A stretch of 29,930 nucleotides of DNA from Nitrospinales bacterium (GTDB taxonomy: Bacteria > Nitrospinota > Nitrospinia > Nitrospinales > JAJDAT01), in the NCBI GenBank assembly GCA_046757665.1, contig JBHHYO010000031.1:1-29930 (forward strand). The letters are read 5' to 3'. Position 1 is the stretch's first letter. The number at the start of each line of letters is the position of its first letter. The notes below the pieces were generated by a model. The model ran no database searches. It had not been told where the DNA came from and worked only from the letters and a program-made list of their open reading frames with translations. The position numbers and the translations under genes were made by a program. Positions 5,227-29,608 of this stretch are shown piece after piece.

Positions 5227-5240
5227 GGATTATAAACCCC

Positions 5241-5285
5241 AAAAGAAAACCCCCCTCCCTCGGCTGTTGGGCCAAGGGAGGGGGG
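5241..5285 (-). terminator. Rho-independent terminator of the large cytochrome c gene
   Basis: Minus strand CCCCCCTCCCTTGGC-CCAACA-GCCGAGGGAGGGGGG then TTTTCTTTT; a G-U wobble supports the minus orientation. Confidence 0.85.
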
Positions 5286-5314
5286 CGGTAAAACTCAAGC
5301 GTTCAAGCTAAAGC

Positions 5315-8300
5315 TTACGGGGTCCGGGCGATCTGAAGATCGTCCGCGTCCAGGAACGCGCCACGTTCATCCGTGGAAAGATCTTCTTCAAGGTCGGACT
5401 CGTCAAGCTGGGGTTCCTCGGTCGAAGCAACAGCAACGTCCTTGGTCTCCACAGGCTTGTTCGCATAGTACACTTGCAACTCGTTGCGGTACGACAGGAC
5501 TTTGTCGAACAGGGCATCCGGCCAAACAGTAGCCGCCGCCAGCTGTTCTTTCGAGTCTTGCCCGTCCGCCGCAAGCAGGCGTTTGATCACGTGAACCGGC
5601 TTGCCGGTCTCGCTCGCTTCCCGCTGTGCGTTCATAACAAGAGCAACATCCGCCTTCGTGGCGGCAACCTTTTTGCCACGAACATAGGACCGCGAAATGT
5701 AAAAGAACGGGTCCTTCGGCGGTTTATGAGGCCAGGCAATACCGTTCTCGGCGCCGACGAATATCTTCTTGAATGGCGGACTCTGAATGTAGTCCACGAT
5801 TTTGTAGATTTCCTCGTCGGTCAGAACGGATTCCATCTCATCCTGGTTTCCCAGGCCCCATTCAGGCATCAACCGCGTGAAGCGGCCATTATGCGGAACC
5901 TCGAACATGTCGTCGCGGGTTCGCGCCAGGGAGTCACTGTCAAACGGGATCCCCGTGATGCCTTCACCGGTGTAGCCGTGGCAATGGGCGCAGTTCATCT
6001 CGAAGATCTGCTGACCTGTGAGATCCGATCCGCGCTTGAACGGCTTGGCCGGAGGCAGGATGCTGATGTTGCCGTCCCAGCGGAGGATAGGCTCGCGTTC
6101 TACCCAGCCTTCATCCTCGACCAGCGCTTCATAGTCCATATCCACAGGCAGGATCATGCCCTTGAGGGCCGGACGCGGAGTATAACCATACTTGATTTGT
6201 CCGCCCCAGCGCTCTGCACTGTGAAGCTCGCCGGGCAGGTCGTTGAAGGTCTCGTTCTGTCCCGGAGCTCCGAGATTGATCGCTACCTTGGTGGCGTTTA
6301 CCGGCGCGGTGCCGAAAGCGCCATGACCACAACCCAGCCAAGGTACGCCGTCATTGTCCCAGTCGCGGATTCCGCCGACGCACAGTCCCAACTCACCGCT
6401 CCGGTTTTCCTCGGACTGGATGATGTTGGTGAACATGAGTTGCTGAATCGCGTATCTCGGGAACTTGGCGATCAGCGGCTTGATCAGATGAATCGGCGTG
6501 CTGAACATGATCTCGCGCCACGCTCTCAACTGGAGAGCCATCTGCATCGACGTGAAAATGACGGTGTCGTCGCCCAGGCGACTGCGAAACACGCCGTGCT
6601 CCTCAACCCAGAAGTTCTTCCAGATGTAGTTCCAGGTCTTCCGGGCCGCCGCGGCATACTTGGGCTCGTCCAGAGTCGAGTACGCGGCAGTCAGCGCGAC
6701 GATGGCGGCGAAGTCCGCCTGGCTCCGGTCGCAAGCGCCCGACGGAGAACCGGAGACGTTGTACTCCATGCAGAAAGAACCGTCTGCTCCCTGAACGGAT
6801 AACAGCAGGTCGGCATTCTTCTTCATCAAGTCCCTGGCCCGTTTGGTGAGCTCCGGCTCAAAGTTTTCGATGTTCGGAGTCGCGATCAAAGCCAGCGGAT
6901 CCTGCATCCGGTTGTTGTACTCCCAGATGCCGATGAAGGCGAGAGCGACGTCTTCCATTTTGAAAGTGTCGCCAGTGCCAGGATTGTCGTAGCTCTTGAA
7001 CAGCCACCACTTGGTCTTGGCGGGTTTCCACTCGGATACCAGAATGCCGTTCTTGGTGTGCATCGCCTCGATGTTCTTGAACGCCATGTTGGCGACGTGG
7101 TGCGGAACGACGCCCAGGTCTTTTTCCATCAAGCCCCCGTCAACCGGCGGGTTGTCCGTGAACATTGACTGCATCCGGTAGGTGGACTGGAACAGATGCG
7201 TGGAGCCCCACAGTACGGCGGCCTGGTCGAAGAGCAGGCTACGGGGATCGTCAATCTCGTAGTTCCAGTTACGCACGTCAAGGTCGCCGGCCAGTACGCC
7301 GGGCGCATTGATGCGATGCGGGAAATACCGCAGACCCTGGGAAGGATCGTAGGTTGCCGGATTGATGCCGCCCATGTTGCCGTCCAGGTCGGCTACCAGG
7401 TTCGTTTTCAGAGCCAAAACCTGGTTGATGCGGGTCGTGGCCAAGGCGATGCCGCGGAAACCTTCTTCAGCGTCGTTGCCCTGCAACACGATGCGCTTGT
7501 TTTGCGTCGTCGGAGACGTGCCGGTGTGGGTGGCCTTCCACATGTAGTCAATCCACATGCTGGCGCGTTTCAGCATGATGCCGATACCGCCCATGTCGAT
7601 ATACTTGATCATGCCGTCGCGATCCCAGCGCCACTGGCGATTCTGGAAGAAATAGCCGGGGATTCCCCACTTGCCGTTTTTCAGGCTCTGCGGATCGTTG
7701 AACTCGTCCGCTACGGGAGTCGGTCCGATGAAATGCGGGTCGCCGCCTTCGTACTCCAGGTAGGCGGGCGCACCGTCATCCGGAAACCGCGGAATACCGG
7801 TCATTTTCCAGTACAGCGGAAAATAGTACGACAACAGCAAGTCCTTGTTGGAGATGAACCGCTCGCCGCGGTCGCGCTGTACTTTCTTGTAGTTGGTCAG
7901 CTCGATGGCTTTCATGGTCCAGTAAGGGCCATTGACCATGTTGATGCCGGAGTGGCTGGCGGCAAAACCGAAACCCAGGTTGTTGCGCGCACCCCAGTAC
8001 AACTGCTGGTTGGTGATCCAGATGAACCCCGGATTGTGGGCCAGCGGAAAGGCGGCGCGAACCATGTTGCTCAGGCCGGTCTGGCTGATCTCGAACTCTT
8101 CGTTGGCGGCCCACTGCGACCACTTCGGATAGAAGGTCCGGTCAATAACCTTGGCTTCCGGCAACTTGCTCATGTACGGGCTCAGGTCCGGCTGGAACGT
8201 GCCTTCCTTCAAGTGGATCATGCGCCCGTCCGCGTTGTTGATAAAGTACATTGCCGACGCCGTGGACACCATAAACAGCATCCCCACCATGGCAACGAGG

Positions 8301-8326
8301 ACTGCGTAAAGTTTTCCTTTACTCAT
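5315..8326 (-). CDS. Large secreted protein of unknown function (~1003 aa): uncharacterised N-terminal region, probable alpha-helical toroid (six-hairpin-like) region, C-terminal monoheme cytochrome c domain, acidic tail
   Basis: GGAGG RBS 8 nt before ATG 8326. Sec signal ending ASA; GQQIFEMNCAHCHGYTGEG (CxxCH at 5978-5992), LMPEW (candidate axial Met), LTDEEIYKIVDYI; helical repeats such as ADLLLSVQGADGSF and YAAAARKTWNYIWKNFW. Confidence 0.9.
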   Translation of the reverse strand: MSKGKLYAVLVAMVGMLFMVSTASAMYFINNADGRMIHLKEGTFQPDLSPYMSKLPEAKVIDRTFYPKWSQWAANEEFEISQTGLSNMVRAAFPLAHNPGFIWITNQQLYWGARNNLGFGFAASHSGINMVNGPYWTMKAIELTNYKKVQRDRGERFISNKDLLLSYYFPLYWKMTGIPRFPDDGAPAYLEYEGGDPHFIGPTPVADEFNDPQSLKNGKWGIPGYFFQNRQWRWDRDGMIKYIDMGGIGIMLKRASMWIDYMWKATHTGTSPTTQNKRIVLQGNDAEEGFRGIALATTRINQVLALKTNLVADLDGNMGGINPATYDPSQGLRYFPHRINAPGVLAGDLDVRNWNYEIDDPRSLLFDQAAVLWGSTHLFQSTYRMQSMFTDNPPVDGGLMEKDLGVVPHHVANMAFKNIEAMHTKNGILVSEWKPAKTKWWLFKSYDNPGTGDTFKMEDVALAFIGIWEYNNRMQDPLALIATPNIENFEPELTKRARDLMKKNADLLLSVQGADGSFCMEYNVSGSPSGACDRSQADFAAIVALTAAYSTLDEPKYAAAARKTWNYIWKNFWVEEHGVFRSRLGDDTVIFTSMQMALQLRAWREIMFSTPIHLIKPLIAKFPRYAIQQLMFTNIIQSEENRSGELGLCVGGIRDWDNDGVPWLGCGHGAFGTAPVNATKVAINLGAPGQNETFNDLPGELHSAERWGGQIKYGYTPRPALKGMILPVDMDYEALVEDEGWVEREPILRWDGNISILPPAKPFKRGSDLTGQQIFEMNCAHCHGYTGEGITGIPFDSDSLARTRDDMFEVPHNGRFTRLMPEWGLGNQDEMESVLTDEEIYKIVDYIQSPPFKKIFVGAENGIAWPHKPPKDPFFYISRSYVRGKKVAATKADVALVMNAQREASETGKPVHVIKRLLAADGQDSKEQLAAATVWPDALFDKVLSYRNELQVYYANKPVETKDVAVASTEEPQLDESDLEEDLSTDERGAFLDADDLQIARTP

Positions 8327-8587
8327 CGTTACACCCTCCATTGCGTTTCCCATGCGGCACGACTTCCATGCCGGAAAACAATTCGTTTATCGGGTTTTAT
8401 ATTTAAAGGAAAGTTGCGCCGGAATTTTGCGGGCCATCCTTTGACCCTTCGGGGTGACGCAACATCCTGGATATTCGCGGATCTCATTTCGGTAACTTCC
8501 CTCCAGTTGAGTGATAAATATAAGGTGAAAAGACCAAATAAAAAACCCTTCTAAATTCGATTCTTAAGTCGATTTTATTCGAATGTG

Positions 8588-8607
8588 TTGTCGTATTTAT
8601 ACGACAA
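8588..8607. promoter_or_regulatory. Perfect palindrome, probable transcription-factor operator upstream of the large cytochrome c gene
   Basis: TTGTCGTAT-TT-ATACGACAA (9-bp arms) in an AT-rich intergenic region. Confidence 0.6.
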
Positions 8608-8683: not shown

Positions 8684-8726
8684 AAACCAACCCCGCTCCC
8701 CAAGATGGCGGAAGCGGGGTTGGTTT
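8684..8726 (-). terminator. Stem-loop/terminator ending the oxidoreductase operon
   Basis: AAACCAACCCCGCT...AGCGGGGTTGGTTT 14-bp perfect arms about 27 nt past the stop at 8753; U tract is short. Confidence 0.7.
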
Positions 8727-8752: not shown

Positions 8753-9859
8753 TTACATATGCGCCCGAAACTGCATGGCTTGGTAAATTCGCTCGCGTCC
8801 CATGCGAAGGGCCACTTCATGAGGATAGATTTTTTCCTCCTTGATTCGGTTGAGCAACTCCTGGGTATTAGCCATGATCGTAGTCTCGACTTTTTCAAAC
8901 GCGCCGGCTTCCGACAGCCCCTGGTATTCCGCGGCCGCGCAGATGACGCCGCCGCCATTGGCGATGACGTCGGGGATGATCATGATTCCCCGGTCATACA
9001 TTTTTCCGGCGGCTTCGTGGGTGATGGGGATGTTCGCGCCTTCGAGCACCAGCCGGGTTTTCAACAAGCCCTGGTTTTCCTCGGTGAACACATCCGGTCG
9101 CGCCGCGGGGATGAAGATATCGGATTCCAGTTCAAGTAAACGATCCCGGGGGATGGCTTTCCCGCCTGAGTATTCGGCGGCATTGTGCTTTGTTTGCAGA
9201 AACTCGACCAAGGCCGGGATGTCGAGTCCGTCGGGATTGTAGAATGCTCCGTTGTACATGCTTACGCCGATGATTATTGAGCCTTTTTCGAGCAGAAATT
9301 TCGCGGCGGCCTTGCCGACGTTGCCAAACCCCTGGATGATAACGCGGGCGTTTTTCAAGGGCAGGGATATAGCTTCGCAGGCAACATCCGCGGCGACGGA
9401 CAGTCCGAATCCGGTCATGCCCAGTTCATCCAGGGGAATGCCGCCGAAAATTTTTGGCAGTCCGATGGCGCGGCCGATTTCGTCGTAAATATAAGCCATG
9501 CATTTTTCATCGGTCCCCATGTCGGGTCCCGGGATGTAATCGGTCAGTTCCTTGATGGACTGGGCGAAGGCGCGTATCAGCATCTCCTTGTCGGGAGAGT
9601 TGGGATCGCCAAGGATGGCGGATTTTGCCCCGCCGTGCGGTAGCCCGTTGATGGCGTTTTTCAGGGTCATCGCCCGCGCCAGGCGGAACACCTCGCGGGT
9701 AGTAACGTCCGGCGCCATACGGCAACCGCCGATGGCCGTGCCCAGCGACAAATTGTCGATCACCACAATCGCCTTCACTGCCGATTTGGGCTCGTAGATG
9801 TGGATGATTTTTTCCGGACCGAGATCGTCGGCGAAATTGTCAACATAGTGTTTGCTCAT
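8753..9859 (-). CDS. Glu/Leu/Phe/Val dehydrogenase family protein, probably not glutamate-specific
   Basis: GTAIGGCRM, LARAMTLKNA, GGAKSAI, PGPDMGT, QGFGNVG, EGANIP, PDVIANGGGVI. Confidence 0.92.
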   Translation of the reverse strand: MSKHYVDNFADDLGPEKIIHIYEPKSAVKAIVVIDNLSLGTAIGGCRMAPDVTTREVFRLARAMTLKNAINGLPHGGAKSAILGDPNSPDKEMLIRAFAQSIKELTDYIPGPDMGTDEKCMAYIYDEIGRAIGLPKIFGGIPLDELGMTGFGLSVAADVACEAISLPLKNARVIIQGFGNVGKAAAKFLLEKGSIIIGVSMYNGAFYNPDGLDIPALVEFLQTKHNAAEYSGGKAIPRDRLLELESDIFIPAARPDVFTEENQGLLKTRLVLEGANIPITHEAAGKMYDRGIMIIPDVIANGGGVICAAAEYQGLSEAGAFEKVETTIMANTQELLNRIKEEKIYPHEVALRMGRERIYQAMQFRAHM

Positions 9860-9887
9860 GATGTTGCGGGTCTCCTGAGATTCTTTT

Positions 9888-12011
9888 TCAGATGACGGTT
9901 ATTTTTGCGTCCAGCACCAGCAGTTGGTTTGGGTACAAGCGGACGGGGTTGAAATCAATGTTCCCAGCTTGCGGTTCATCGACTATCCAGTCCGCGACGA
10001 ATTTCAAGAAAGAGAGCAAGCGTTCACTGTCCAGGGGCGGTCCGCCGCGGGCGCCCCGGATAATTGTTCCCGCGTGGGTTCGGAAAACCATGCGGCGCAA
10101 TTCCGCGTCCGTCGCGGGCAACAAGAGGCGTTCGATGTCCTGATAAACTTCCACGAACCGGCCCCCGGAACCGAACAGCAGAACCGGTCCGAACTGACGA
10201 TCTTGATGAACCCCCACCATCAGATCAAGTCCGGGCGCGGCCTGTTGCTCGGCCCAGATGCAATTTGGCCGAATCCGTGACATTTCCCGCCAGGTTTCCA
10301 GCAACTCAACGGTGTTTTGAATATTGAGCTCGATCCCCGCAACCTCGGTTTTGTGTTTGATGTCCGGGGCGATGACTTTCAGCGTCAGGGGAAATCCCAG
10401 CGTTTGGCCTGCCGTTTCCGCATCTTCGGCGCATTCGACTTTCATGCTTCCGGGAACGGTGACGCCGCAAGCGGCCAACATGTTTTTGATTTGAATTTCA
10501 TCCGGGGCAGTGTTGCTCCGGCCCAACCAGCCGACGGCGGGTCCGGGGTCGAAAGATTTTTTGATGCAGACCGGTGACCGGAGTTTGGGCGGCCGCGCGC
10601 GAACCAGCAAGTGGAAAGCCCGGGCGGCCTCCTCTCCCGATGGAAATACCGGGACCTCCTCACGGGCGAAGGCCGTGTGCAGTTCCGAAAACAGCGTTCG
10701 GCCAACGGCCCCCAAAACCACGGAGAGACCTTTCGGCAGTCGGGAGCACAGTAACGGTGCAATTCCGGAATCGATCCCGGCCGCTCCGGACAGCAAAACC
10801 ATCAGCAAACCGTCATACTGCCCGGTTTGGAGAAGACGCTCCACGGCAAGCGCGCATTGTTCGTTGGTCCCCGATGCCGTCAGGTCGATGGGGTTATTGA
10901 AGGAACAGTAACCCGGCAGGCTGGCGCGCAGGTATTCCTGCTCGGCCGCCGGGGGTTCGGGAAGGCGGAGGCCGGCCTGCTCGCACATATCGGTCAGCAA
11001 CACGCCCATGCCGCCGGCGTTGGAAACGACAAGCACTCGATTGCCCCTTGCCGGAGCTTGCAGAGCCAGGACTTGCAGGGCGTTGGCCAGTTCGCTCAGG
11101 CTCTGCGTTTCGATCATGCCCGTCTGGGTACATGCGGCGCGGAACACGGCGTAAGACCCCGCCAGGGACGCCGAATGGGCGTACGCCGCCTGGCGGCCTT
11201 GCCGGCCGCGGCCCCCTTTCAGGATGACGATGGGTTTGGCGCCCCCGGAACGCCGGACGGTCTCCAGCAACCGTCGTCCGTCGGCAACGCTTTCCAAGTA
11301 GAGGCCGATAACTTTTACGGCGGGGTCGTCAATAAATTCATCCAGCAATTCGCACTCGCCGATATCCACCCGGTTGCCGAAACTGACGGCCCGGTGGACG
11401 CCAACCCCCTGCTCGGCCAGCCGGTCCAGAATCGCCGACAAAAATGCGCCGCTTTGCGAAATGATTGCTGTCGGGCCGGGTTTCGGCAGGGAAATCTTGT
11501 CCATGGCAAGAAAAAAACTGTTGAACCGGTCCGGGGCGCTGAAGACGCCCAGGCAATTTGGCCCGATGACCCGCACGCCGAATTTTTTGCTTAACTGCGA
11601 CAGTTGGTCCTGCAAGTCCCTGCCCTCGCCGGCGGTTTCCGCGAATCCGCCGCTCACGACAATCAAATGGCGTATCCCGCGCCGGGCGAGAGGTTCGATC
11701 AAACCGGGAACGGCGGCGGCGGGCACGGCGGCAATGGCCAGGTCCGGGCTTGCGGGCAACTCCTCCACGGAACATGCGGCCGTGCAGTGGCGCACCGGCG
11801 TTCCGCCGGGATGAACCGTGTAAATGGCTCCCTGAAATCCCTGCGCCAGCAAACTTGCGACGATTCTCCTCCCCGGGTTTCCCGGCTTGGGAGAAGCGCC
11901 GACGACAACCACCGACCGCGGTGAAAAAAACCGCCGCAATTCGGGTCGGGATTCATCGGCTTCCATTTTCCGGTCCGGTTTGCGGGCCGATGTGATGACG
12001 GCTTTATTCAT
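9888..12011 (-). CDS. ADP-forming acyl-CoA (acetate--CoA) synthetase, fused alpha/beta
   Basis: PRSVVVVGAS, SGGFAE, IGPNCLG, ISQSGA, SFGNRVD, AHSASLAG (phospho-His), NPIDL, ATP-grasp domain with HKTE, FGPVLLFGSGG, DFNPV. ATG 12011 overlaps the upstream stop; exact start uncertain. Confidence 0.9.
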   Translation of the reverse strand: MNKAVITSARKPDRKMEADESRPELRRFFSPRSVVVVGASPKPGNPGRRIVASLLAQGFQGAIYTVHPGGTPVRHCTAACSVEELPASPDLAIAAVPAAAVPGLIEPLARRGIRHLIVVSGGFAETAGEGRDLQDQLSQLSKKFGVRVIGPNCLGVFSAPDRFNSFFLAMDKISLPKPGPTAIISQSGAFLSAILDRLAEQGVGVHRAVSFGNRVDIGECELLDEFIDDPAVKVIGLYLESVADGRRLLETVRRSGGAKPIVILKGGRGRQGRQAAYAHSASLAGSYAVFRAACTQTGMIETQSLSELANALQVLALQAPARGNRVLVVSNAGGMGVLLTDMCEQAGLRLPEPPAAEQEYLRASLPGYCSFNNPIDLTASGTNEQCALAVERLLQTGQYDGLLMVLLSGAAGIDSGIAPLLCSRLPKGLSVVLGAVGRTLFSELHTAFAREEVPVFPSGEEAARAFHLLVRARPPKLRSPVCIKKSFDPGPAVGWLGRSNTAPDEIQIKNMLAACGVTVPGSMKVECAEDAETAGQTLGFPLTLKVIAPDIKHKTEVAGIELNIQNTVELLETWREMSRIRPNCIWAEQQAAPGLDLMVGVHQDRQFGPVLLFGSGGRFVEVYQDIERLLLPATDAELRRMVFRTHAGTIIRGARGGPPLDSERLLSFLKFVADWIVDEPQAGNIDFNPVRLYPNQLLVLDAKITVI

Positions 12012-12936
12012 AACGCTCCCAATACTGATCGACGTTGCTCTGAATCCGGGCAATCAGGTCTTCGCGTTTTTCCGGCGTGAAAAGATGGCGGAACCGTTTT
12101 TGCCGTTCCAGAAACTTCTCGACCGGAACCCGTTTCCTGGGCCGCCTGGTGTGAACCACTTTCCCGTCGATGTATTCCTTGAGGGGAAAGATGCCCGTAT
12201 CCACGGCCAGTTTGGCCATCACAAGAGAGTCCTTGGGGTCGAACCCCCAACCGGTGGGACAGGTCGCCAGGCAGATAAACAACCGCGGCCCCTTCATGGT
12301 TTTGGCCCTGGCGAATTTGTTGGAAAGGTCCATAGGCTCCCTCGGCGACACCGTGGCCAGGTAGGCCGGGCGATGCGCTTTCCAGATTTCAAACAGGTCT
12401 TTTTTGTCCAGCTCCTGTCCGGCGGGATGAGCGTCCGTGCTGGGGGTGGTCTGCGTGGCGCACCCGAAGGGCGAAGCGCCGGACAGCTGGAATCCCGTGT
12501 TGCCGTAGCCTTCGTTGTCGTAACAAAAATAAATGAAATCCAGTCCGCGTTGCACGGCGGCGGAGGTGGCGCTCAATCCCATGTCGTAAGTTGAGCCGTC
12601 GCCGGCGACCACCATGAGTTGCAAATCTTCCTCTTTCGCCAGGCCGTTTTGCAGGCGGATATCCAGGGCGTCGCGCACCCCTTGCAGGGCGGGCACGGGA
12701 GAGGCCATGGTGGTGTACAACCACGACCCCTGCAACGGCGTAAAGGGATAGACCGACAGCAGGGTGAAACAACCGGCGGCATTGGCCGTCAGCACATTTT
12801 CGCCGAGCACCTTCATGGCCAGGCGCAGTCCCTCCAGACCGCCGCAACCCGCGCACAGCGGGGTTCCCGGAGCAATAAACTCGGCTCGGTTCAAATCCTT
12901 TATCTTTTTGTAACTGGTTGCGGTGGCGTTGCTCAT
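12004..12936 (-). CDS. porB: Pyruvate/2-ketoisovalerate:ferredoxin oxidoreductase beta subunit (TPP-binding)
   Basis: CAGCG, AGCF, GDG...YDNEGYGNTGFQ TPP motif, CPTGWG. Confidence 0.92.
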   Translation of the reverse strand: MSNATATSYKKIKDLNRAEFIAPGTPLCAGCGGLEGLRLAMKVLGENVLTANAAGCFTLLSVYPFTPLQGSWLYTTMASPVPALQGVRDALDIRLQNGLAKEEDLQLMVVAGDGSTYDMGLSATSAAVQRGLDFIYFCYDNEGYGNTGFQLSGASPFGCATQTTPSTDAHPAGQELDKKDLFEIWKAHRPAYLATVSPREPMDLSNKFARAKTMKGPRLFICLATCPTGWGFDPKDSLVMAKLAVDTGIFPLKEYIDGKVVHTRRPRKRVPVEKFLERQKRFRHLFTPEKREDLIARIQSNVDQYWERYE

Positions 12937-12963
12937 GACCGCACCTCCCGTTATTGTCTCCCC

Positions 12964-14184
12964 TCAGCTTGCTATGCGCTGGAGGTTGTAAAACCGTTCC
13001 AGGTCGTTCTCGTCGAACAAGAACAACGGCCCCTTGAAATCGGGCCGGTCCAGATGCTCGATCACGGCCAGGAAATCCTCGTCCCTGATATCCTTGCCGC
13101 CCAGGCCGCCGATGACCGGCAGGATTTTTTGCGGGCGGTTGTCGAGTTCATACAGGGCGGCGGTGATTTCGGAAACCGTGATGCCGCCGGCTCCCGGCGA
13201 AATATTCTGGTCGATCACCGCCACCTTGGCATGGCCGCCCAGGGCGTTGCGCACCGCGGCGGCCGGGAAGGGCCGGAAGAGCCGCAGTTTGAGGAGGCCC
13301 GCCTTGACGCCCCGACGGCGCAAGGCATCGACGGCCGCCTTCCCCTTGGTGGCAAATGAGTTGCTCATGACAAAAACATATTCGGCGCCTTCGAGCCGAT
13401 ACCTTTCCACCGGTTCATAGAAGCGGCCGAAGCGCTCGCCGAACTCGCGGGCGACTTTTCCAAACACGGTTTCCGCTTTCAGCGAGGCCAGGTGATGCTG
13501 GATTTTGAAAAACATGTAATTGCCGCCGCCGAACACCGCCGGCGCGCGCGCCATGGGTCGGGACGCCTGAAACACCGGCTGTACCGGCTCGAACGGCGGC
13601 AGAAACGCGGCGATTTCCTTGTCGTCCGGCAAAAGCACCGGCTCCCGCGTGAAGGACAGGTAAAAGCCGTCCAGGTTGACCAGAACCGGCAGGCAAACCC
13701 CGCGGTCCTCGGCGATACGGTATCCCATCAAGACGAAGTCCAGAATCTCCTGGCAGGTTTCGGCGTGGAGTTGCACCAGGCCGCAGTCGCGTGTGCTCAT
13801 CACGTCGTTGTGGTCGGGTTCCAGGGTGATGGGGGCGGCCAGCGCCCGGGAAACGTTGACCATGACGAATGGCACGCGCCATCCGGTGACGGTGTACAGA
13901 GCTTCCAGGCCGTAAACGATTCCCTGGCTGGAAGAGGCGGTGAACACGCGCACCCCCGAGGCGGCGCCGGCGCCGGCGGCGCTGAACATGGAATGCTCGG
14001 AGTCCATATTGGTGAACTTGCCCTTCATGGTGCCGTCGGCGAACCACTGGGACAAGGTTTCGACGATCTCCGTTTGCGGGGTGATGGGGAAGGCCGGGAC
14101 ATACTGCACGCGGGCCAGCCGCGCTCCCCAGGCCGCGGCCTTGTTGCCGGTTAACATGATCCTTCGACTGCCGTTTACGTCCAT
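12964..14184 (-). CDS. porA: Pyruvate/2-ketoisovalerate:ferredoxin oxidoreductase alpha subunit
   Basis: GNKAAA, AFPITPQTEIVE, DSEHS, TASSSQG, VSRAL, DHNDVM, DGFYLS, RLFRPFP, GGLGGKD. Start at 14184 or 14158. Confidence 0.92.
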   Translation of the reverse strand: MDVNGSRRIMLTGNKAAAWGARLARVQYVPAFPITPQTEIVETLSQWFADGTMKGKFTNMDSEHSMFSAAGAGAASGVRVFTASSSQGIVYGLEALYTVTGWRVPFVMVNVSRALAAPITLEPDHNDVMSTRDCGLVQLHAETCQEILDFVLMGYRIAEDRGVCLPVLVNLDGFYLSFTREPVLLPDDKEIAAFLPPFEPVQPVFQASRPMARAPAVFGGGNYMFFKIQHHLASLKAETVFGKVAREFGERFGRFYEPVERYRLEGAEYVFVMSNSFATKGKAAVDALRRRGVKAGLLKLRLFRPFPAAAVRNALGGHAKVAVIDQNISPGAGGITVSEITAALYELDNRPQKILPVIGGLGGKDIRDEDFLAVIEHLDRPDFKGPLFLFDENDLERFYNLQRIAS

Positions 14185-15080
14185 GATACGGTCTCCCTGA
14201 AAGCCTGGATGGCGTGGGTCGGGCATTCCACAAGGCAGATCAGGCAACCCTTGCAGTGCTCGTAGTCGATGTCCGGGTTGCCGTCCGGACGCAGGCTCAT
14301 GGCGCTGTCCGGGCAACGGGCGAAACAGATGCCGCACTGGTTGCAAACCTCGTAATCGATTTCCGGCCGTTGAGTGCGCCAGTTCCCCGTCTTTCGCATG
14401 GCCATGTTGGCGGCGGCGAAAATGACGGGAGCGGCGGCGGACACTTCCTTGTGGGGTGGCATGGCGAGACGCCCGGCGGTCGGGATCGTTTCTTTTCGCT
14501 TGTAAATCGGCAGGGGAGTCAGTTCCGCGAACACCCGCGACACGAGTTCCAGGTTGCGGACCAACATGTTTTCATCGATCCCTTGCTGGGACAACTCGGT
14601 TCTTACGGCCTGGACAAGGAAGCGCAATTCGATGACGCCGGTCAGGCGGGCGGCGGCCGCGGCGAGTGCGGTGCTCAGGATCATTCCCTGGTTCAGATAA
14701 TGAATGCAAAGATCAGTCAGGTCGGCCGCCGCCGGGAGGGAGGGTAGGTGATAATGCGCTTTCAACGCATCCGGATCGCGCGGCGAATTGATAAACATGA
14801 CCGTCCGTTCGTCCGCGCCTCCGGTCGGAGCCGCCAGGGGATCGGCCAGCAAGGTTTCGTCGCCGATCAGCAAAAGGTCCGGACGGGCAATGGCGCCGCG
14901 TTCGCGGACGGTTTCCCGGTCAAAGCGGGTGTAGGCGACGATCGGCGCGCCCCGCCGCTCGGCTCCGTACAACGGAAAATCCTGCGCCTGGTATCCGGCA
15001 AAAAACGCGGCGCTACCGAGAATCTGGCCGGCGGTTTTGATGCCCTGTCCGCCGCGTCCGTGAAATCTTGCCCGTAGCAT
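14175..15080 (-). CDS. 2-oxoacid:ferredoxin oxidoreductase gamma subunit fused to delta (2x[4Fe-4S]) subunit
   Basis: RFHGRGGQG, YGAERRGAP (gamma); TGNWR..P, CNQCGICFARCP and CKGCLICLVECP (delta). GGAGG RBS before ATG 15080. Confidence 0.92.
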   Translation of the reverse strand: MLRARFHGRGGQGIKTAGQILGSAAFFAGYQAQDFPLYGAERRGAPIVAYTRFDRETVRERGAIARPDLLLIGDETLLADPLAAPTGGADERTVMFINSPRDPDALKAHYHLPSLPAAADLTDLCIHYLNQGMILSTALAAAAARLTGVIELRFLVQAVRTELSQQGIDENMLVRNLELVSRVFAELTPLPIYKRKETIPTAGRLAMPPHKEVSAAAPVIFAAANMAMRKTGNWRTQRPEIDYEVCNQCGICFARCPDSAMSLRPDGNPDIDYEHCKGCLICLVECPTHAIQAFRETVSWT

Positions 15081-15158
15081 GGCCCGCCTCCTTCCTTCCA
15101 ATTGGTGGGGGAAAATCCGAAGAGGAGATTTTCCATGCCGATCAGGATCGCAACCCGC

Positions 15159-16238: not shown

Positions 16239-17330
16239 TCAATCATGCGGAAACAAGTGGATGGCCGTCGCCTTCACCGACAGGTCCACCTCGCGGGACT
16301 CGGCCAGCCCCATGTCGGCGCAGGCCTCCCGGGTGATCAGGGCGCTGATGATGAAGCCGCAATCGACCGTCACCCGCATCACGTAGTCCTCCCGGGCGAT
16401 TGACCGGATTGTGCCGCGCCACCGGTTGCGGGCGCTGGTTTTGGCTCTTCCCGGCTCCGCCAGCACAATGTCCTCGGCGCGGATTCCCACCATGACCTTG
16501 TCCGCCGCGGCCACGCCGGCGTTTTCCACGGCGGTCAACAGATGGTCGCGCACTTTGACGTGAACCAGGCCGTCCCTGCTTTCGACCACGTTGCCGGGGA
16601 ACACGTTTTCCATGCCGACGATCTCGGCGGTGCGTTTGTGATTGGGCTTGCTGAACACTTCATGGATAAGCCCCGCTTGCAGGGTTTTGCCGCGGTCGAG
16701 GACGATCAGCCGGTCGCCCAGCGTCAACGCCTCGGTGCGGTCGTGGGTGACGAGGAAAATGGGCGCGTCGAATCCGCTCAGTTGCGACCGCAGTTCCTTG
16801 CGTAACGCGATTCGCATCGGGCTGTCGAGCGCCGCGAACGGTTCGTCCAGGAGTAGCAGGCGCGGCCGGCGCATCAAGGCGCGCGCCAGGGCCACCCTCT
16901 GCTTTTCGCCTCCGGAAAGCAGGTGCGCCCGGCGTTCCTCCAAACCCCGAAGATGAAACCGCTCGATCATCGCTGTGATGCGCCGTTCTTTTTCTCCGCT
17001 TGCCAGGCCGGTGAGGTTGTAGCCGAGGTTTTTGCGCACGGACAGGTGAGGGAACAGCGCGTGGTCCTGAAAGCAAAATCCGATGCGCCTGTCCTGCGGC
17101 GGCACGAACCGGCCGTTTTCGTACCAGGTTTCATCGCCGAAACGGATGACGCCCCGGTCGGGTTTGTCCAGCCCGGCAAGACATCGCAGGACGGTGGTCT
17201 TGCCGGAGCCCGACGGGCCGAACAAAACGGTCCAGCAATGGCGCAGTGGCATCGAGGCGCGGAAGGCGATTTCCCCGTCCGGCAGTTGCTTGTGAATGTC
17301 GATCAGAATTTCCTGGGCCATGCCGACCAT
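16239..17330 (-). CDS. modC: Molybdate ABC transporter ATP-binding protein with C-terminal TOBE domains
   Basis: GPSGSGKTT, FQDHALFPHL, LSGGEKQRVALARAL, LLLLDEPF, TSARN and VKATA TOBE motifs. Alternative start 17321. Confidence 0.93.
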   Translation of the reverse strand: MVGMAQEILIDIHKQLPDGEIAFRASMPLRHCWTVLFGPSGSGKTTVLRCLAGLDKPDRGVIRFGDETWYENGRFVPPQDRRIGFCFQDHALFPHLSVRKNLGYNLTGLASGEKERRITAMIERFHLRGLEERRAHLLSGGEKQRVALARALMRRPRLLLLDEPFAALDSPMRIALRKELRSQLSGFDAPIFLVTHDRTEALTLGDRLIVLDRGKTLQAGLIHEVFSKPNHKRTAEIVGMENVFPGNVVESRDGLVHVKVRDHLLTAVENAGVAAADKVMVGIRAEDIVLAEPGRAKTSARNRWRGTIRSIAREDYVMRVTVDCGFIISALITREACADMGLAESREVDLSVKATAIHLFPHD

Positions 17331-17980
17331 ATCCTCCGGTTCACCGCGTAAATCGTTGCCAGCGCCAGGAACGAGAACACCAAGAGCGTCAGGGATGTCT
17401 GGCCGGCTTGCTCGTAGTCCAGGGCTTGCACGTGGTCGTAAATGTCGATCGAAACCACGCGCGTCGAGCCGGGGATGTTGCCCCCCACCAGCAACACCAC
17501 GCCGAACTCGCCCAGGGTGTGGGCGAAGGACAGCACGCCGCCGGTGATCAACCCTCTGACCGAATTGGGCAGGACCACCGTGGCGAATGTTTTGGCCCGT
17601 GACGCTCCCAGCATCCAGGCCGCCTCGCTCAACTCCGGCTCCACGGATTCAAAGGCCGACAAAAACGGTTGCACGGCAAACGGCAGACTATACAAAATGG
17701 AAGCCACCACCAACCCCTCGAAGGTGAACGGCAGAGCGCTCCCGAAAATGTCCTGGTACAACTTTCCCAACGGAGAGTTGGGGCTGATGGCCACCAGGAT
17801 GTAGTAGCCGAGCACCGTCGGCGGCAGGACGATGGGCAGGGCGACGACCGCTTCCAGAAGAAACTTCCACCGCCACCGCGACAGGCTCAACCATCCCGCC
17901 AGGGGCACGCCGATCAAAAAAAGCAACAGGGTGACCACCCCAGCGAGCTTGATGGACAAGAGTAAAGGCTCGGTCATCAT
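17303..17980 (-). CDS. modB: Molybdate ABC transporter permease
   Basis: LPIVLPPTVLGYY, YSLPFAVQP, EAAWMLGAS, FAHTLGEFGVVLLVGGNIPG; ATGA overlap with modA. Confidence 0.95.
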   Translation of the reverse strand: MMTEPLLLSIKLAGVVTLLLFLIGVPLAGWLSLSRWRWKFLLEAVVALPIVLPPTVLGYYILVAISPNSPLGKLYQDIFGSALPFTFEGLVVASILYSLPFAVQPFLSAFESVEPELSEAAWMLGASRAKTFATVVLPNSVRGLITGGVLSFAHTLGEFGVVLLVGGNIPGSTRVVSIDIYDHVQALDYEQAGQTSLTLLVFSFLALATIYAVNRRIWSAWPRKF

Positions 17981-18816
17981 GGGTCATTGCCTCCGGGCGT
18001 CCGGTTGCCTCCGGGCGTCCGGTACCCGTAGCGCCGGAAAATTTTCCGGCCCTCGGGTCCCAGGACGAATTGTGCGAATGCGCCGGCGCCTTGCGGGTTG
18101 CCGCCGTTTTTTACAATCAGGAAACTCTGGGCGATGGGGCGGTGCGATGCGGTGGGGATTTCCCAATAGGTGCCGGGATTTTTCATTTTTCCTCCCGCAA
18201 CCAGGGAAAGTGCAAGGATTCCCGCCTGCGCCGCGCCGGAGTCGACAAACTGCGCCGTCTGCGAAATGTTCTCGCCCATCACCAGCCGGTCCCGCACCTG
18301 TTCATAAACGCCGAAATGCCGCATCGCCTCCACCGCCGCCCGGCCGTACGGCGCGTGGCGCGGGTTGGCGATGGCGATTTTTTTGATCGCCGGACGCAAC
18401 AGCGCCGCGAACTTTTTCTCCCGGACGTTGGCCGCGAATCCCCTCGCCACCCAGAGCGCCATGGCGCCAAGGGCGTAAGCCGTGGTGTTGCTCCCCGGCG
18501 CCGCCAACCCCGACTCCTCCAGTCTCCGCGGATAACCGGAGTCCGCCGAAAAAAAGATGTCGTAGGGCGCGCCGTTGCGGATTTGACTGTAAAAGTTCCC
18601 CGACGAGCCGAAGGAGATTTTGACCGGCACGTCCGGATGTTGCCGGCGGAAACGGTCGACCATCTCCGCGAACGCGAATTGCGTGTTGGAGGCCGCCGCC
18701 ACCAGCGCCGGCGCCGCCCGCGCCGCCGGGGCAAACGCCAAGAGCGCCACAACGCCGGCCCACAAGAACAAAGCCGCCCGCGCCGCTGGAGTTATCATTC
18801 GTCTGTTCCGTTTCAT
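17977..18816 (-). CDS. modA: Molybdate ABC transporter periplasmic binding protein
   Basis: Signal peptide; AAASN, SFGSSG, GAPYDIFFSAD, IANPRHAPYGRAA, GENISQ. Confidence 0.95.
   Translation of the reverse strand: MKRNRRMITPAARAALFLWAGVVALLAFAPAARAAPALVAAASNTQFAFAEMVDRFRRQHPDVPVKISFGSSGNFYSQIRNGAPYDIFFSADSGYPRRLEESGLAAPGSNTTAYALGAMALWVARGFAANVREKKFAALLRPAIKKIAIANPRHAPYGRAAVEAMRHFGVYEQVRDRLVMGENISQTAQFVDSGAAQAGILALSLVAGGKMKNPGTYWEIPTASHRPIAQSFLIVKNGGNPQGAGAFAQFVLGPEGRKIFRRYGYRTPGGNRTPGGNDP
17987..18022. repeat. 18-bp tandem duplication at the modA 3' end
   Basis: TTGCCTCCGGGCGTCCGG x2, encoding RTPGGN twice. Confidence 0.85.
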
Positions 18817-18838
18817 CTTTTCCTCATAATCATCCGGG

Positions 18839-20053
18839 CTAAAAGCTTACCTGAAACCGGGTGAGAAAGGCGTCCACGCCGCCGACATCCCTTCCCTGCC
18901 CGTCATCCACGTTGCTGTGTACGTAATTGAACCTGACCGCCGTGTTCGGGTTGAGCCACCAGTTCAACCCGGCCGTGATGTCGTGCAATTTGCCGCCGGC
19001 GACCGAGCCGTCGTTCAGGTCGACAAAGGAATACCGCGCGGCGACCTGCCAGGCGCCTCTGCCGCCGTCCAGGAAATTGTTCCTCGGCCTTGTCCGCCCC
19101 CACACCCCGTGCCCGTAGGACCGCGTCTCGCCGGTCAACCAGTAACCCGCCTCCACGTACCCGGCGTCCAGGTTTGCGGCCGCGGCATTCCGGACGGTTA
19201 CATGCGCGAACTCGTATTCGCCTTGCACGTGCAGGGAGTTCCAGAGAACCGCGAATTCCGGACGCAACCCCCTCACGCCGTCCGACTCAACCGCGCCGGC
19301 GCCGGCCAGCCGGATGCCGTTGACGTGTTGCTCGGCGCGTTGCGAAAACTTCACCCGGCCGTCGTTGGGGTTGTTGAATTGAAAACCGAACCCCACATGG
19401 ACCAGCTTGCTCCTGTCGCCGTTTTGCCAGGGAACGGCGGTGACGCGCCCGGCAACATTGAGGTTGCCACCCGACAAAATTTCGGACGGTTTCTCCGATG
19501 GGCTTCCCTTGGCCAGGGAAACGGCCCAGGTCAGCCGGTCGTCCCGCGCCGAGTCATAAAGAACGAACCCCGGGTTGCGGAGTTTGGCGAACGTTTGCGC
19601 CAGCGACCGCTCCAGGAACGTCAGGTCGTTGCCGCCGGTCAGCGCATCCAGGGAATAGGGCCGCTTGAAATTTCCTGCCCGGAAATTGCCGAGGACGGGC
19701 AGTTTGCGTATGCCGATGTAAACGTCCTTGAACGTGGTGTCCCTCACAAAGTCGAAATCAATCTTGAAGACGATCCGGTCATACAACACTCCGGACAAGT
19801 ACCAGCGAATGCGGCGGAAGTCGGCCTCGTTTCTTTGTGCGCCGAATTTTTTGGCGACGGCCTTGTCGTCGCGGAACAATCCCCAGTCGACGTGGATGCG
19901 GCCGCCCGTTTTGAAACGGAACGTTCCGTCCGCCGAGTCGAGCCGCAGGCCGTCCTTGATATAGACGCGGTAATCCCTCGGCTCCGCCCGCGGGGACGGA
20001 GCAGAGAACAAGAACCACAACATACCGCCCAGCAGACCGGCAAGCAGTTTCAT
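18839..20053 (-). CDS. OprO/OprP-family anion-selective outer-membrane porin, first gene of the mod operon
   Basis: Signal peptide; GGRIHVD, FRRIR, GNFKRPYSL, FLERS, QGEY, GYWLTGE, GAWQVAARYS..DLND, GLNWWLN, FNY, terminal Phe (RFQVSF). Confidence 0.88.
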   Translation of the reverse strand: MKLLAGLLGGMLWFLFSAPSPRAEPRDYRVYIKDGLRLDSADGTFRFKTGGRIHVDWGLFRDDKAVAKKFGAQRNEADFRRIRWYLSGVLYDRIVFKIDFDFVRDTTFKDVYIGIRKLPVLGNFRAGNFKRPYSLDALTGGNDLTFLERSLAQTFAKLRNPGFVLYDSARDDRLTWAVSLAKGSPSEKPSEILSGGNLNVAGRVTAVPWQNGDRSKLVHVGFGFQFNNPNDGRVKFSQRAEQHVNGIRLAGAGAVESDGVRGLRPEFAVLWNSLHVQGEYEFAHVTVRNAAAANLDAGYVEAGYWLTGETRSYGHGVWGRTRPRNNFLDGGRGAWQVAARYSFVDLNDGSVAGGKLHDITAGLNWWLNPNTAVRFNYVHSNVDDGQGRDVGGVDAFLTRFQVSF

Positions 20054-20085
20054 GAATCGTTATATATCATAAAACATAACGATTC
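20054..20085. promoter_or_regulatory. ModE-type operator (Mo box)
   Basis: GA-ATCGTTATATA-TCATAA-AACATAACGAT-TC matches the ModE consensus ATCGNTATATA-N6-TATATANCGAT; 10-bp perfect outer arms; directly upstream of porin-modABC. Confidence 0.85.
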
Positions 20086-20111
20086 GTCAACCGGTTAAAG
20101 TGGCCGTTGCC

Positions 20112-20142
20112 CGCCCTGTCATGTTGAGCCTGTCGAAGGGCG
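20112..20142. repeat. REP-like intergenic element (GTCATG.TGAGCCTGTCGAAG type)
   Basis: CGCCC-TGTCATGTTGAGCCTGTCGAA-GGGCG resembles the widespread CCCTTCGACAGGCTCA repeat that translates as LSLSK; single copy in this window. Confidence 0.55.
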
Positions 20143-20176
20143 ACATTCCCCGGTTGCTTATTTTTGCAACGAAGTA

Positions 20177-21238
20177 CTATGGCGTCAGCTTGCCGATTTT
20201 GTTCTGGAACCGCCCGCGGAAATACATCCCCATTTCGGTGAACCAGACGTTGCCCTCAGCGTCCAGCGCGATGGCGTGCGGATGCGCCCCGCGGGTCGGG
20301 ATTTTGAACGTTTCCACCCCGTAAGCCGTGTTGGGTTTGGATTTCGCCAGTTCCAGCCGGCCCACGGCGTCGGCATGGTTGTCCACGAACCAGACCCGGC
20401 CGCGTTTGTCGTCCACCGCCAGGTCGTGGGGCGTTTTGGATTTTCTGCCGAGGGGGTATTCCACCACGCTGGGCGGGTTGCCTTTTGCAAAGTCCAGGCG
20501 CGCCAGTTTTTTGCCCTTGAACTGGGTGAACCAGATACTGCCGTCCGCCGCCCGGGTCATGCCATGCGGCACGGAGGTCTCCGGCGGCACGATGAGTTCC
20601 TCCACCTTGCCGGAAGCGATGTCGAGCCGGCCGATTTTGTTGGCGTATTGCCCCTTCCAAAACTTGCCGCCCTGGGTGTACCAGACCTGGCCGCCGGTCA
20701 GGACCAGGTCGTGAGGGTTGCCCTCGTTTACGGGAAATTCCTTGATTTCGCCGCTTGCCGGGGTCAGGCGGGCGACCTTGTTGGACTCAAACTCCAAAAA
20801 CCAGATGTTGCCGGCGTCGTCCTCCGCCAGGTTATGCGGTTCGCTGTTGGCGGTGGGGATGGGGTATTCCTTGATGTTGCCGGTTTTGGGGTCCAGCCGG
20901 CCGATTTTGTTCACCCCCCATTCCGAGAACCAGATACTGCCGTCACGGGCAACGAGGATGTACTGGGGCTTACTGCCGGGCTGGGGCAGGTCGTACTCGG
21001 TGATGCCCTTGACGGTGCCCGGCTCGGCCTCGCCGGGCGTCAGTTTGCCGATTTTGTTGCCGTTGATTTCCGTGAACCACAGGTTGCCTGCCGCGTCAAA
21101 CGCCAGGTCTCCGGGGGAGCTGTCCGGAGTGGGGGTGACGTATTCGAAGATGGTCGCGGCCCGGCCCGGAATCGTCGCCAACAGGATGACAATACACAGC
21201 GCGAAGCTTTGCCAGGCTTTCATGGGAATTTTCGCCAT
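20177..21238 (-). CDS. Secreted Vgb (virginiamycin B lyase)-like seven-bladed beta-propeller
   Basis: Signal peptide; seven repeats of P-x-x-[LIM]...G.[LIV]W[FY]...NKIG[KR]L; GGAGG RBS. Confidence 0.85.
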   Translation of the reverse strand: MAKIPMKAWQSFALCIVILLATIPGRAATIFEYVTPTPDSSPGDLAFDAAGNLWFTEINGNKIGKLTPGEAEPGTVKGITEYDLPQPGSKPQYILVARDGSIWFSEWGVNKIGRLDPKTGNIKEYPIPTANSEPHNLAEDDAGNIWFLEFESNKVARLTPASGEIKEFPVNEGNPHDLVLTGGQVWYTQGGKFWKGQYANKIGRLDIASGKVEELIVPPETSVPHGMTRAADGSIWFTQFKGKKLARLDFAKGNPPSVVEYPLGRKSKTPHDLAVDDKRGRVWFVDNHADAVGRLELAKSKPNTAYGVETFKIPTRGAHPHAIALDAEGNVWFTEMGMYFRGRFQNKIGKLTP

Positions 21239-29320: not shown

Positions 29321-29608
29321 AATTTTCCCCCCGCTGGTGATGGTTGGCAAACCCCCACTTTGTCGATCGAGACCGGACCTTTGCCTGAATAGCCGGATTC
29401 TCCCACTTCCCGCCGATCCGATCAACCCCATTGACTTCGCCGCCCGGCGGACGGACTGAAAAGCCTGCCTACCCCTCCAGGCCATGTAACCCGGCAAATC
29501 GACGGGGCTTCCGCCGGCGCATACCTGCACTTTGCGCTATATATAAGGGATAAAAACGGAGACCGGAGACGGGCAAACGCCCGAAGCAGATCAAAGTTGA
29601 TTTTTGAC

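Follow-up and report, generated by a model that had tools for sequence, protein, structure and literature searches.

The question raised by one gene in the genome of a bacterium of the order Nitrospinales, within the nitrite-oxidising phylum Nitrospinota (assembly GCA_046757665.1, contig JBHHYO010000031.1) is what a very large protein, predicted to be exported and joined to its own cytochrome c, might do in the periplasm. The window, that is, the whole stretch of 29,930 nucleotides analysed here, contains this gene on the minus strand at 5315..8326, where an open reading frame (ORF) encodes the 1003-residue protein P0001, formed by an (alpha/alpha)6-barrel and a cytochrome c domain, as indicated by the ORF call, Pfam, and a structural model. 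The first-pass annotation, made from the sequence alone, had described a secreted candidate oxidoreductase of some 1003 residues with a Sec signal, and both the ORF and the Sec-type signal, as read from the sequence, are borne out. Comparison with related loci shows that the large gene is the core of a conserved module with an outer-membrane channel and a cupredoxin, and not a stand-alone enzyme. Because the relatives sit with this channel and with haem or copper carriers, a new kind of periplasmic redox enzyme is likely. That the large protein is a redox enzyme of any kind is fairly probable, and the more specific proposal, a periplasmic dehydrogenase that feeds the respiratory chain with electrons by way of haem c and the cupredoxin, is given an even chance.

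The context of the gene was compared over 65 related genome loci, which are not independent of one another, with scans covering 97 + 56 of the 714 ORFs called as neighbours. A gene for an outer-membrane barrel lies directly upstream of the large gene in 55 of these loci; six of the ten others have less than 900 nt of sequence upstream, and the remaining four are distant homologs (21-26% identity) with flanks. The model of the host's own barrel, with a predicted local distance difference test score (pLDDT) of 73.5, aligns with the COG4313-like channel 4rl8 (Z 26.1, root-mean-square deviation (rmsd) 2.6, 259 residues aligned) and with FapF (5o65; Z 24.1, rmsd 3.2, 253 aligned), the latter being the best match in Foldseek, and the next match falls to Z 18.6. 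The predicted structure has the 12-stranded barrel and N-terminal plug of a COG4313/FapF channel, and PF13557 matches two of the approximately 14 barrels scanned, one of them above the cut-off. In three loci (L041:704-2311, L043:6284-7948, and L045:6355-7980), the barrel has a monohaem cytochrome c domain of its own at the N-terminus, a fusion that resembles Cyc2. About 20 exact 22-nt tandem repeats, which may be an assembly artefact, lie just 5' of the barrel gene of L001, at ~6020-6455.

Electron carriers recur beside or within the large protein. A C-terminal haem domain is fused to it in 36 of the 65 loci, and in 19 of the 29 haem-less loci, some of them truncated, a cupredoxin or CxxCH gene is found within 3.5 kb, which supports the association of haem-less homologs with such genes that the first-pass annotation proposed to check; the background for a nearby carrier gene is 34 of 502 large host genes. 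Altogether, 55 of the 65 loci have either a fused haem or a nearby cytochrome or cupredoxin gene. The cupredoxin-like protein, with an H..CxxHxxM pattern, recurs in 28 loci (CxxHxxM is present in 34 of the 36 matches). Other arrangements include an N-terminal CxxCH (P0098 and P0124), a PSCyt1-type haem (P0204), a C-terminal cupredoxin (P0120), and a split form in L058 and L059, where the cytochrome gene lies directly 3' of the large gene. Genes for a cytochrome bd subunit I-like protein, a c-type cytochrome, and a DOMON cytochrome adjoin seven loci. OR-N bd-type proteins, to which these bd-I-like neighbours may belong, have been put forward, without experiment, as cytochrome c-oxidising O2 reductases (PMC10839748 and PMC13768755). 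Two-component regulators are common upstream, their sensor kinases having varied domains that name no signal, and neither the scanned neighbours nor the neighbour clusters contain a recurring gene for transport, catabolism, or cofactor biosynthesis.

In the host, the module is split. The genes run in the order barrel, large gene, cupredoxin in other Nitrospinales loci (L001-L003), and here the barrel and type-1-copper genes are adjacent on contig C28 (G000:C28:25257-28063, L066), separated by a short hairpin region and no gene, whereas C31 has the large gene without either partner. The cupredoxin on C28 has the type-1 copper ligand pattern, LHNPH plus CDTHIHM, and is not matched by the Pfam cupredoxin models. 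The earlier description of the large gene as monocistronic holds at the host locus, which is an exception within the family, where the module genes usually adjoin. Across the phylum, the barrel is found in five of 120 Nitrospinota genomes, four of which, including the host, have both the barrel and the large gene. An assembly artefact can be rejected as the cause of the lone position on the downstream side only, since a metagenome contig (L097), which extends 12 nt upstream of the large gene, is collinear with the window over 7 kb downstream (88% identity) and matches neither the cupredoxin nor the barrel. Its copy of the large gene is 93% identical to that of the host, the two differing at 181 synonymous and 74 non-synonymous codons, and the gene is under purifying selection. 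The two contigs thus agree in their layout downstream, the large gene has been preserved, and the barrel, large protein, and cupredoxin likely still work together.

The large gene is also carried by five viral contigs. In the four that were mapped (L069, L071, L072, and L073; ~35% guanine-cytosine content), the barrel, large gene, and cupredoxin stand in a row, surrounded by T4-like genes for a single-stranded DNA-binding protein, a late-promoter regulator, a DNA polymerase, and a deoxynucleoside monophosphate kinase. In a FastTree phylogeny of 51 sequences, midpoint-rooted and without a clade test, the three phage sequences that were included fall within the Nitrospinota clade as sister to L001/L003 (support 0.988), and the module appears, on this branching, to have been taken up by phages from Nitrospinota. 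L069 and L071 also encode a 4Fe-4S ferredoxin-like protein and a 2-oxoglutarate-Fe(II) oxygenase.

Within P0001 itself, all features of which lie on the minus strand, the class I cytochrome c domain occupies residues 770-849 (5780..6019) and exceeds the Pfam cut-offs of PF13442 (34.8 bits, cut-off 27) and PF00034 (33.3, cut-off 21.3); the NCBIfam scan of the protein returned cytochrome matches only, all below cut-off. The single CxxCH haem attachment motif, recognised by pattern and homolog alignment near the start of this domain, is CAHCH at residues 779-783 (5978..5992), and Met820 (5867..5869), about 40 residues further on within LMPEW at 819, is the likely distal haem ligand, being present in 83 of the 84 homologs with the domain. 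Among 92 aligned sequences, C779, C782, H783, and M820 are conserved in 83-84 of the 84 that bear the domain, as a His/Met cytochrome of the kind first proposed would have it. The predicted template modelling score (pTM) of 0.91 suggests that the haem domain packs on the barrel. The haem domain is followed in the model by a helical C-terminal extension (residues 850-960; 5447..5779) and by the acidic tail already noticed in the first-pass annotation (residues 961-1003; 5318..5446), which has 14 D/E against 3 K/R and is modelled with low confidence. The other motifs that had been quoted are all present as well, namely YLEYEGGDPHF at 189, WRWDR at 232, EEGFRG at 287, YDPSQGLRYFPH at 326, SLLFDQAAVLWG at 363, and FKNIEAMH at 416. 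The claimed richness in aromatic residues and Met, measured for residues 26-770 against 1333 host ORFs, stands for Trp (99th percentile) and Met (95th), and is only mild for Tyr (81st).

The large domain (residues ~58-685, ~630 residues; 6272..8155) has no Pfam or NCBIfam family match. The AlphaFold model, built with 92 sequences (pLDDT 90.5, pTM 0.91), is mainly helical in this region, and Foldseek and VIA-align place it among the six-hairpin barrels (Z 17-19, ~10% identity), the toroid that had been predicted by eye. The GH105 protein 4xuv (Z 18.9, rmsd 3.3, 305 aligned) and the cellobiose 2-epimerase 4z4j (Z 17.8, rmsd 2.9, 344 aligned) both share 9% identity with it, and the best 50 structural matches are glycosidases, epimerases, lyases, cyclases, phosphorylases, or proteins with no assigned function. 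A sequence search of the PDB recovered cytochrome-domain matches and a single hairpin only; the match of one hairpin to the AGE and GH105/GH88/GH76 group has E 2.5e-8 by hidden Markov model (HMM). A full-length match to a characterised glycosidase or epimerase was found in none of the Pfam, PDB sequence, and structure searches. The AGE/GH105-type catalytic histidines are apparently missing: in hhalign comparisons with two AGE-family proteins, the GHxxE and YH motifs fall opposite His-free segments (probability 2.5%, a low-confidence alignment), and the conserved H267, H337, and H423 of the P0001 family sit elsewhere in the hairpin repeat than the AGE catalytic His, taken here to lie at the starts of the inner helices.

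Conservation was assessed in a non-redundant set of 81 sequences, most of which belong to the barrel-linked clade (set A), and in 74 hand-picked, diverse, full-length homologs (set B). The near-invariant polar residues of set A include N75, E76, Y110, R114, Y135, R151, R153, E155, R180, R233, H267, R291, H337, D367, H423, D459, R604, E605, E639, E645, and D655/657/659, and those best kept in set B are E76, H423, D459, R604, E639, E645, and the DxDxDG loop. This last motif (residues 655-660; 6347..6364), recognised in the alignments as part of a family signature E639..GE645..DxDxDG.P..G.AP, is likely a Ca2+-binding loop, presumably of the Dx[DN]xDG kind.

The family extends well beyond the Nitrospinota. 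Among 7020 candidates, 91 near-length homologs were found, most of them with the haem domain and named only "c-type cytochrome" or "hypothetical", and a haem-free profile of the large domain recovered 602 cluster representatives at E<=0.001, a set whose weak end includes generic hairpin-repeat proteins; at E<=1e-30, 80 remain. In a Pfam scan of 64 of the 148 new distant representatives, four cytochrome c domains, one cupredoxin, five type IX secretion system (T9SS) tails, and eight DUF11 surface proteins were recorded. The domain is also embedded in giant proteins of 1800-5700 residues, many of them Cys-rich (P0100, which has DUF11 repeats, P0106, P0123, P0148, P0150, P0157, and P0169). No functional name is given by the nearest ESM Atlas clusters (0.93-0.95; "hypothetical" or "putative DUF4856"), and the cluster names of 20 distant homologs are only "hypothetical" or "cytochrome c domain-containing".

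The closest named relatives of P0001 (64-67% identity) belong to Nitrospinales and Nitrospinota genomes. In the host (2.97 Mb, 97.6% complete), the gene is single-copy, and a 1160-residue gene of the type II dimethyl sulfoxide (DMSO)-reductase family, below the model's cut-off, is probably NxrA. The large gene is present in seven of 120 Nitrospinota genomes (five of 57 high-quality ones), two of 148 Shewanella, and, in four copies, one Gemmatimonadota genome. Given its presence in only seven of the 120, a role in core nitrite oxidation is rejected and the pathway is accessory.

Under the reading of P0001 as a dehydrogenase, the protein would be exported through the Sec system and receive its haem in the periplasm, and the substrate would enter through the COG4313/FapF-like channel. 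Binding would take place in a site rich in Arg, Glu, and Tyr (E76, Y110, R114, Y135, R151, R153, E155, R604, E639, and E645), possibly with Ca2+ or another carboxylate-bound metal, and a small substrate would be oxidised inside the barrel. The electrons may then pass from haem c to the cupredoxin and the cytochrome c pool, from where they would either reach an OR-N bd-like oxidase or enter reverse electron flow, and the reaction would finish in the periplasm, since no inner-membrane transporter or catabolic gene recurs beside the large gene. His/Met haems and type-1 copper proteins are the usual electron acceptors of periplasmic dehydrogenases, and both also feed reductases.

A number of observations weigh against this reading. 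The top matches of the modelled domain are all non-redox enzymes, and no cofactor has been found for it. Across the 74 diverse homologs, there is no universal His cluster or Cys/Met set, so that a classical copper or iron site is not evident and the redox active site postulated in the first-pass annotation finds no conserved His/Cys/Met ligand set; H423 corresponds in the alignment to a structural site of the hairpin repeat, and H125, H198, and position 132 vary even within the barrel-linked clade. The lack of recurring cofactor-biosynthesis genes points the same way, as does pqqC, above its cut-off in nine of 51 carrier genomes but with no match in the host, which leaves self-made pyrroloquinoline quinone (PQQ) unsupported, though the compound could be scavenged. 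Carriers are scarce among the distant homologs (five of 64 with a cytochrome or cupredoxin domain), and ten of the 29 haem-less loci show none, six cut by contig ends and four (L011, L063, L064, and L065) with flanks. In a second background, 16 of 36 distal ORFs of the same loci lie near a carrier, albeit in the same cytochrome clusters, and the related loci are not independent. The wiring itself does not set the direction of electron flow, as identical wiring serves iodate reductase-like enzymes.

This last point leads to the reading of P0001 as a periplasmic reductase or detoxifying enzyme, in which electrons from the haem and cupredoxin would reduce reactive halogen species (HOI/I2, HOBr) or peroxide. 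It is unlikely, and is given weight because such carriers supply reductases too and idr-like clusters have this wiring beside them. In L019, L020, and L026, the large gene is followed by a cupredoxin, two di-haem peroxidases, a Rieske protein, and a Mo-3Fe4S enzyme, the gene content of the idrABP1P2 clusters of iodate respiration (names from PMC10149662 and PMC11445184), and L018 continues into such a cluster, which brings the physical link to four of the 65 loci; the three linked loci, however, may share one origin. A gene for such an IdrA-like molybdenum enzyme is present in 12 of 50 carrier genomes, but 38 have no match, it was not found in the 97.6% complete host genome at E<=1e-60, and it occurs in one of seven Nitrospinota carriers against 11 of 120 genomes in the phylum. 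An obligate link to iodate respiration is rejected on the basis of the 38 carriers and the host.

Two further readings retain some weight, given that carriers are missing from distant homologs and that there is no evident cofactor. The barrel may be a non-redox enzyme or ligand-binding domain (a hydrolase, lyase, or isomerase), with the haem in a regulatory role or serving a neighbouring step, as the top fold matches are all glycosidases, epimerases, lyases, or cyclases, and the conserved carboxylates and Arg would suit acid-base catalysis; homologs with T9SS tails and DUF11 have no carrier domain. The ~10% identity, the unmatched AGE catalytic His in a low-confidence alignment, the lack of recurring sugar transport or catabolic genes among the scanned neighbours, and the several different fusions to electron carriers all argue against it, and this reading is judged to be quite improbable. 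The same small chance is assigned to a role without catalysis, in which P0001 would be a scaffold or surface component of an electron conduit similar to porin-cytochrome systems and the FapF-like barrel would anchor or export it. The best Foldseek match of the barrel is, after all, a polypeptide channel, the barrel is fused to cytochrome c in three loci, distant homologs have surface-sorting domains, and the identities of the barrel and large protein co-vary (Spearman 0.76, 50 pairs), as joint transfer would also produce. However, the domain has many near-invariant charged residues, as in active sites, a single haem could not bridge the membrane, and a folded 100-kDa haem protein is unlikely, on general grounds, to pass through a 12-stranded barrel.

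The gene counts do not name the substrate. The N-oxide and amine substrates that had been suggested are not supported: nosZ-like genes occur in eight of 51 carrier genomes, and the scanned neighbours include no gene for amine catabolism. A link to nitrous oxide is likewise unsupported by the nosZ-like count. The chlorite dismutase family, in 18 of the 51, is uninformative, and together with those of idrA, pqqC, and nosZ, its count leaves the substrate unnamed. The idr-like clusters L084, L085, L092, and L093 share the cupredoxin, bd-I-like, and cytochrome c/DOMON genes, and often have an uncharacterised gene of ~725-775 residues 3' of the molybdenum enzyme. IdrA/AioA-like molybdenum enzymes (46-58% identity to that of L020) are found in the Nitrospinota genomes G001-G004, G034, G037, G039, G040, G079, G113, and G118; the main text of PMC10839748 mentions neither iodate nor arsenite.

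A number of known systems resemble parts of the module. The (alpha/alpha)6 fold of the large domain is common to the AGE/cellobiose 2-epimerase family (PF07221) and to GH105, GH88, and GH76, but P0001 differs from AGE/GH105-type enzymes in its ~250 extra residues, its fused haem, and its ~10% identity. PF07221 does not match P0001 at E<=0.01, nor any protein of the host genome, and is marked in the precomputed annotation of two of the 91 homologs; the GH105, GH88, and GH76 families give no Pfam match on the large domain. Quinohaemoprotein alcohol dehydrogenase and the cytochrome cd1 nitrite reductase are likewise exported enzymes in which a catalytic toroid is joined to a class I cytochrome c that exchanges electrons with cupredoxins or cytochromes, and the haem domain of P0001 weakly matches cd1 (E 0.13). 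Their toroids, in contrast, are beta-propellers with PQQ or haem d1, whereas that of P0001 is all-helical, and genes for PQQ or haem d1 do not recur beside it.

The partner barrel is predicted to share the fold of FapF and the COG4313 channels (Pput2725, TcpY, and SphA), and is longer (400-550 residues), with big loops and an N-terminal helix. The COG4313 channels are implicated in the uptake of hydrophobic molecules (PMC4493636), and the literature found describes no member paired with a P0001-type protein. The idrABP1P2 cluster, in turn, shares the cupredoxin and the bd-I-like and cytochrome c accessory genes with the module loci, and its catalytic subunit is a molybdenum enzyme of a fold unrelated to that of P0001. 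No description of a P0001-type protein or module was found in the literature at the level of abstract openings. The layout resembles toroid-plus-cytochrome enzymes and COG4313 systems, but curated families do not include the catalytic domain, and by sequence none of its relatives has a solved structure.

The signals around the gene fit a separate transcription unit. The ATG at 8326 is preferred as the start over the in-frame ATG at 8353, which would give 1012 residues, because a ribosome-binding site, GGAGGG (8334..8339, minus strand), lies 7 nt ahead of it. The predicted Sec signal peptide (residues 1-25; 8252..8326) has a basic N-end, a hydrophobic core, and A-S-A at 23-25, and similar leaders open the homologs. 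An intrinsic-terminator-like hairpin with a T run (5239..5286, minus strand) follows the gene, its 16-pair stem at 5249-5286 being correctly placed for the 3' end, and a similar hairpin follows the gene in L097; the seven terminator-type sites of the scan, against 4.3 in shuffles, are by count alone within chance. A perfect, strand-neutral 9-bp inverted repeat at 8588..8607 is a candidate regulator site and the only exact match to its pattern genome-wide, with a two-mismatch relative near 2724 on G000:C1. Both the terminator and the palindrome had been reported at first reading. A permissive scan of the upstream regions, without a shuffle control, for FNR, CRP, Fur, sigma-54, RegA, and NsrR boxes found no shared motif.

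Upstream of the gene lie 426 nt of non-coding DNA, which include a 17-bp hairpin (8684..8726, minus strand), identified by Pfam and the hairpin scan as the likely terminator of the Glu/Leu/Phe/Val dehydrogenase gene that precedes it. On the downstream side, a transporter gene converges on the large gene. By Pfam and NCBIfam, the window otherwise has housekeeping genes around it, for amino-acid dehydrogenases, a dicarboxylate symporter, 2-oxoacid:ferredoxin oxidoreductase, modABC, and msrP. The 2-oxoacid:ferredoxin oxidoreductase, an acyl-CoA ligase, and the Glu/Leu/Phe/Val dehydrogenase form one run at 8753-15101, which, with a tryptophanase-family gene at 27941-29530, possibly represents amino-acid catabolism in a relative of the nitrite oxidisers. 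Genes for a Vgb-like beta-propeller and a phosphate-selective-type porin (16239-21238) lie 5' of modABC, and msrP (1368-2366), above its NCBIfam cut-off, adjoins an ORF of 156 residues with no Pfam match.

A redox enzyme on a six-hairpin scaffold would, if confirmed, represent new chemistry. It is tentatively proposed, with some doubt, that P0001 founds a new oxidoreductase class on the six-hairpin glycosidase fold, with no known cofactor, and that it serves as an unrecognised electron source or sink for some nitrite oxidisers and many marine and subsurface bacteria, possibly in the iodine cycle, valuable enough for T4-like phages to carry the whole channel-enzyme-cupredoxin module. The system is directly testable, as it involves one soluble protein with the haem as a built-in reporter, and cultured carriers exist, namely Shewanella hanedai JCM 20706 and Pseudocolwellia agarivorans QM50. 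Given its occurrence across many phyla, its own channel and electron wiring, and its uptake by phages, the module may therefore mark an unrecognised reaction of energy metabolism or detoxification.

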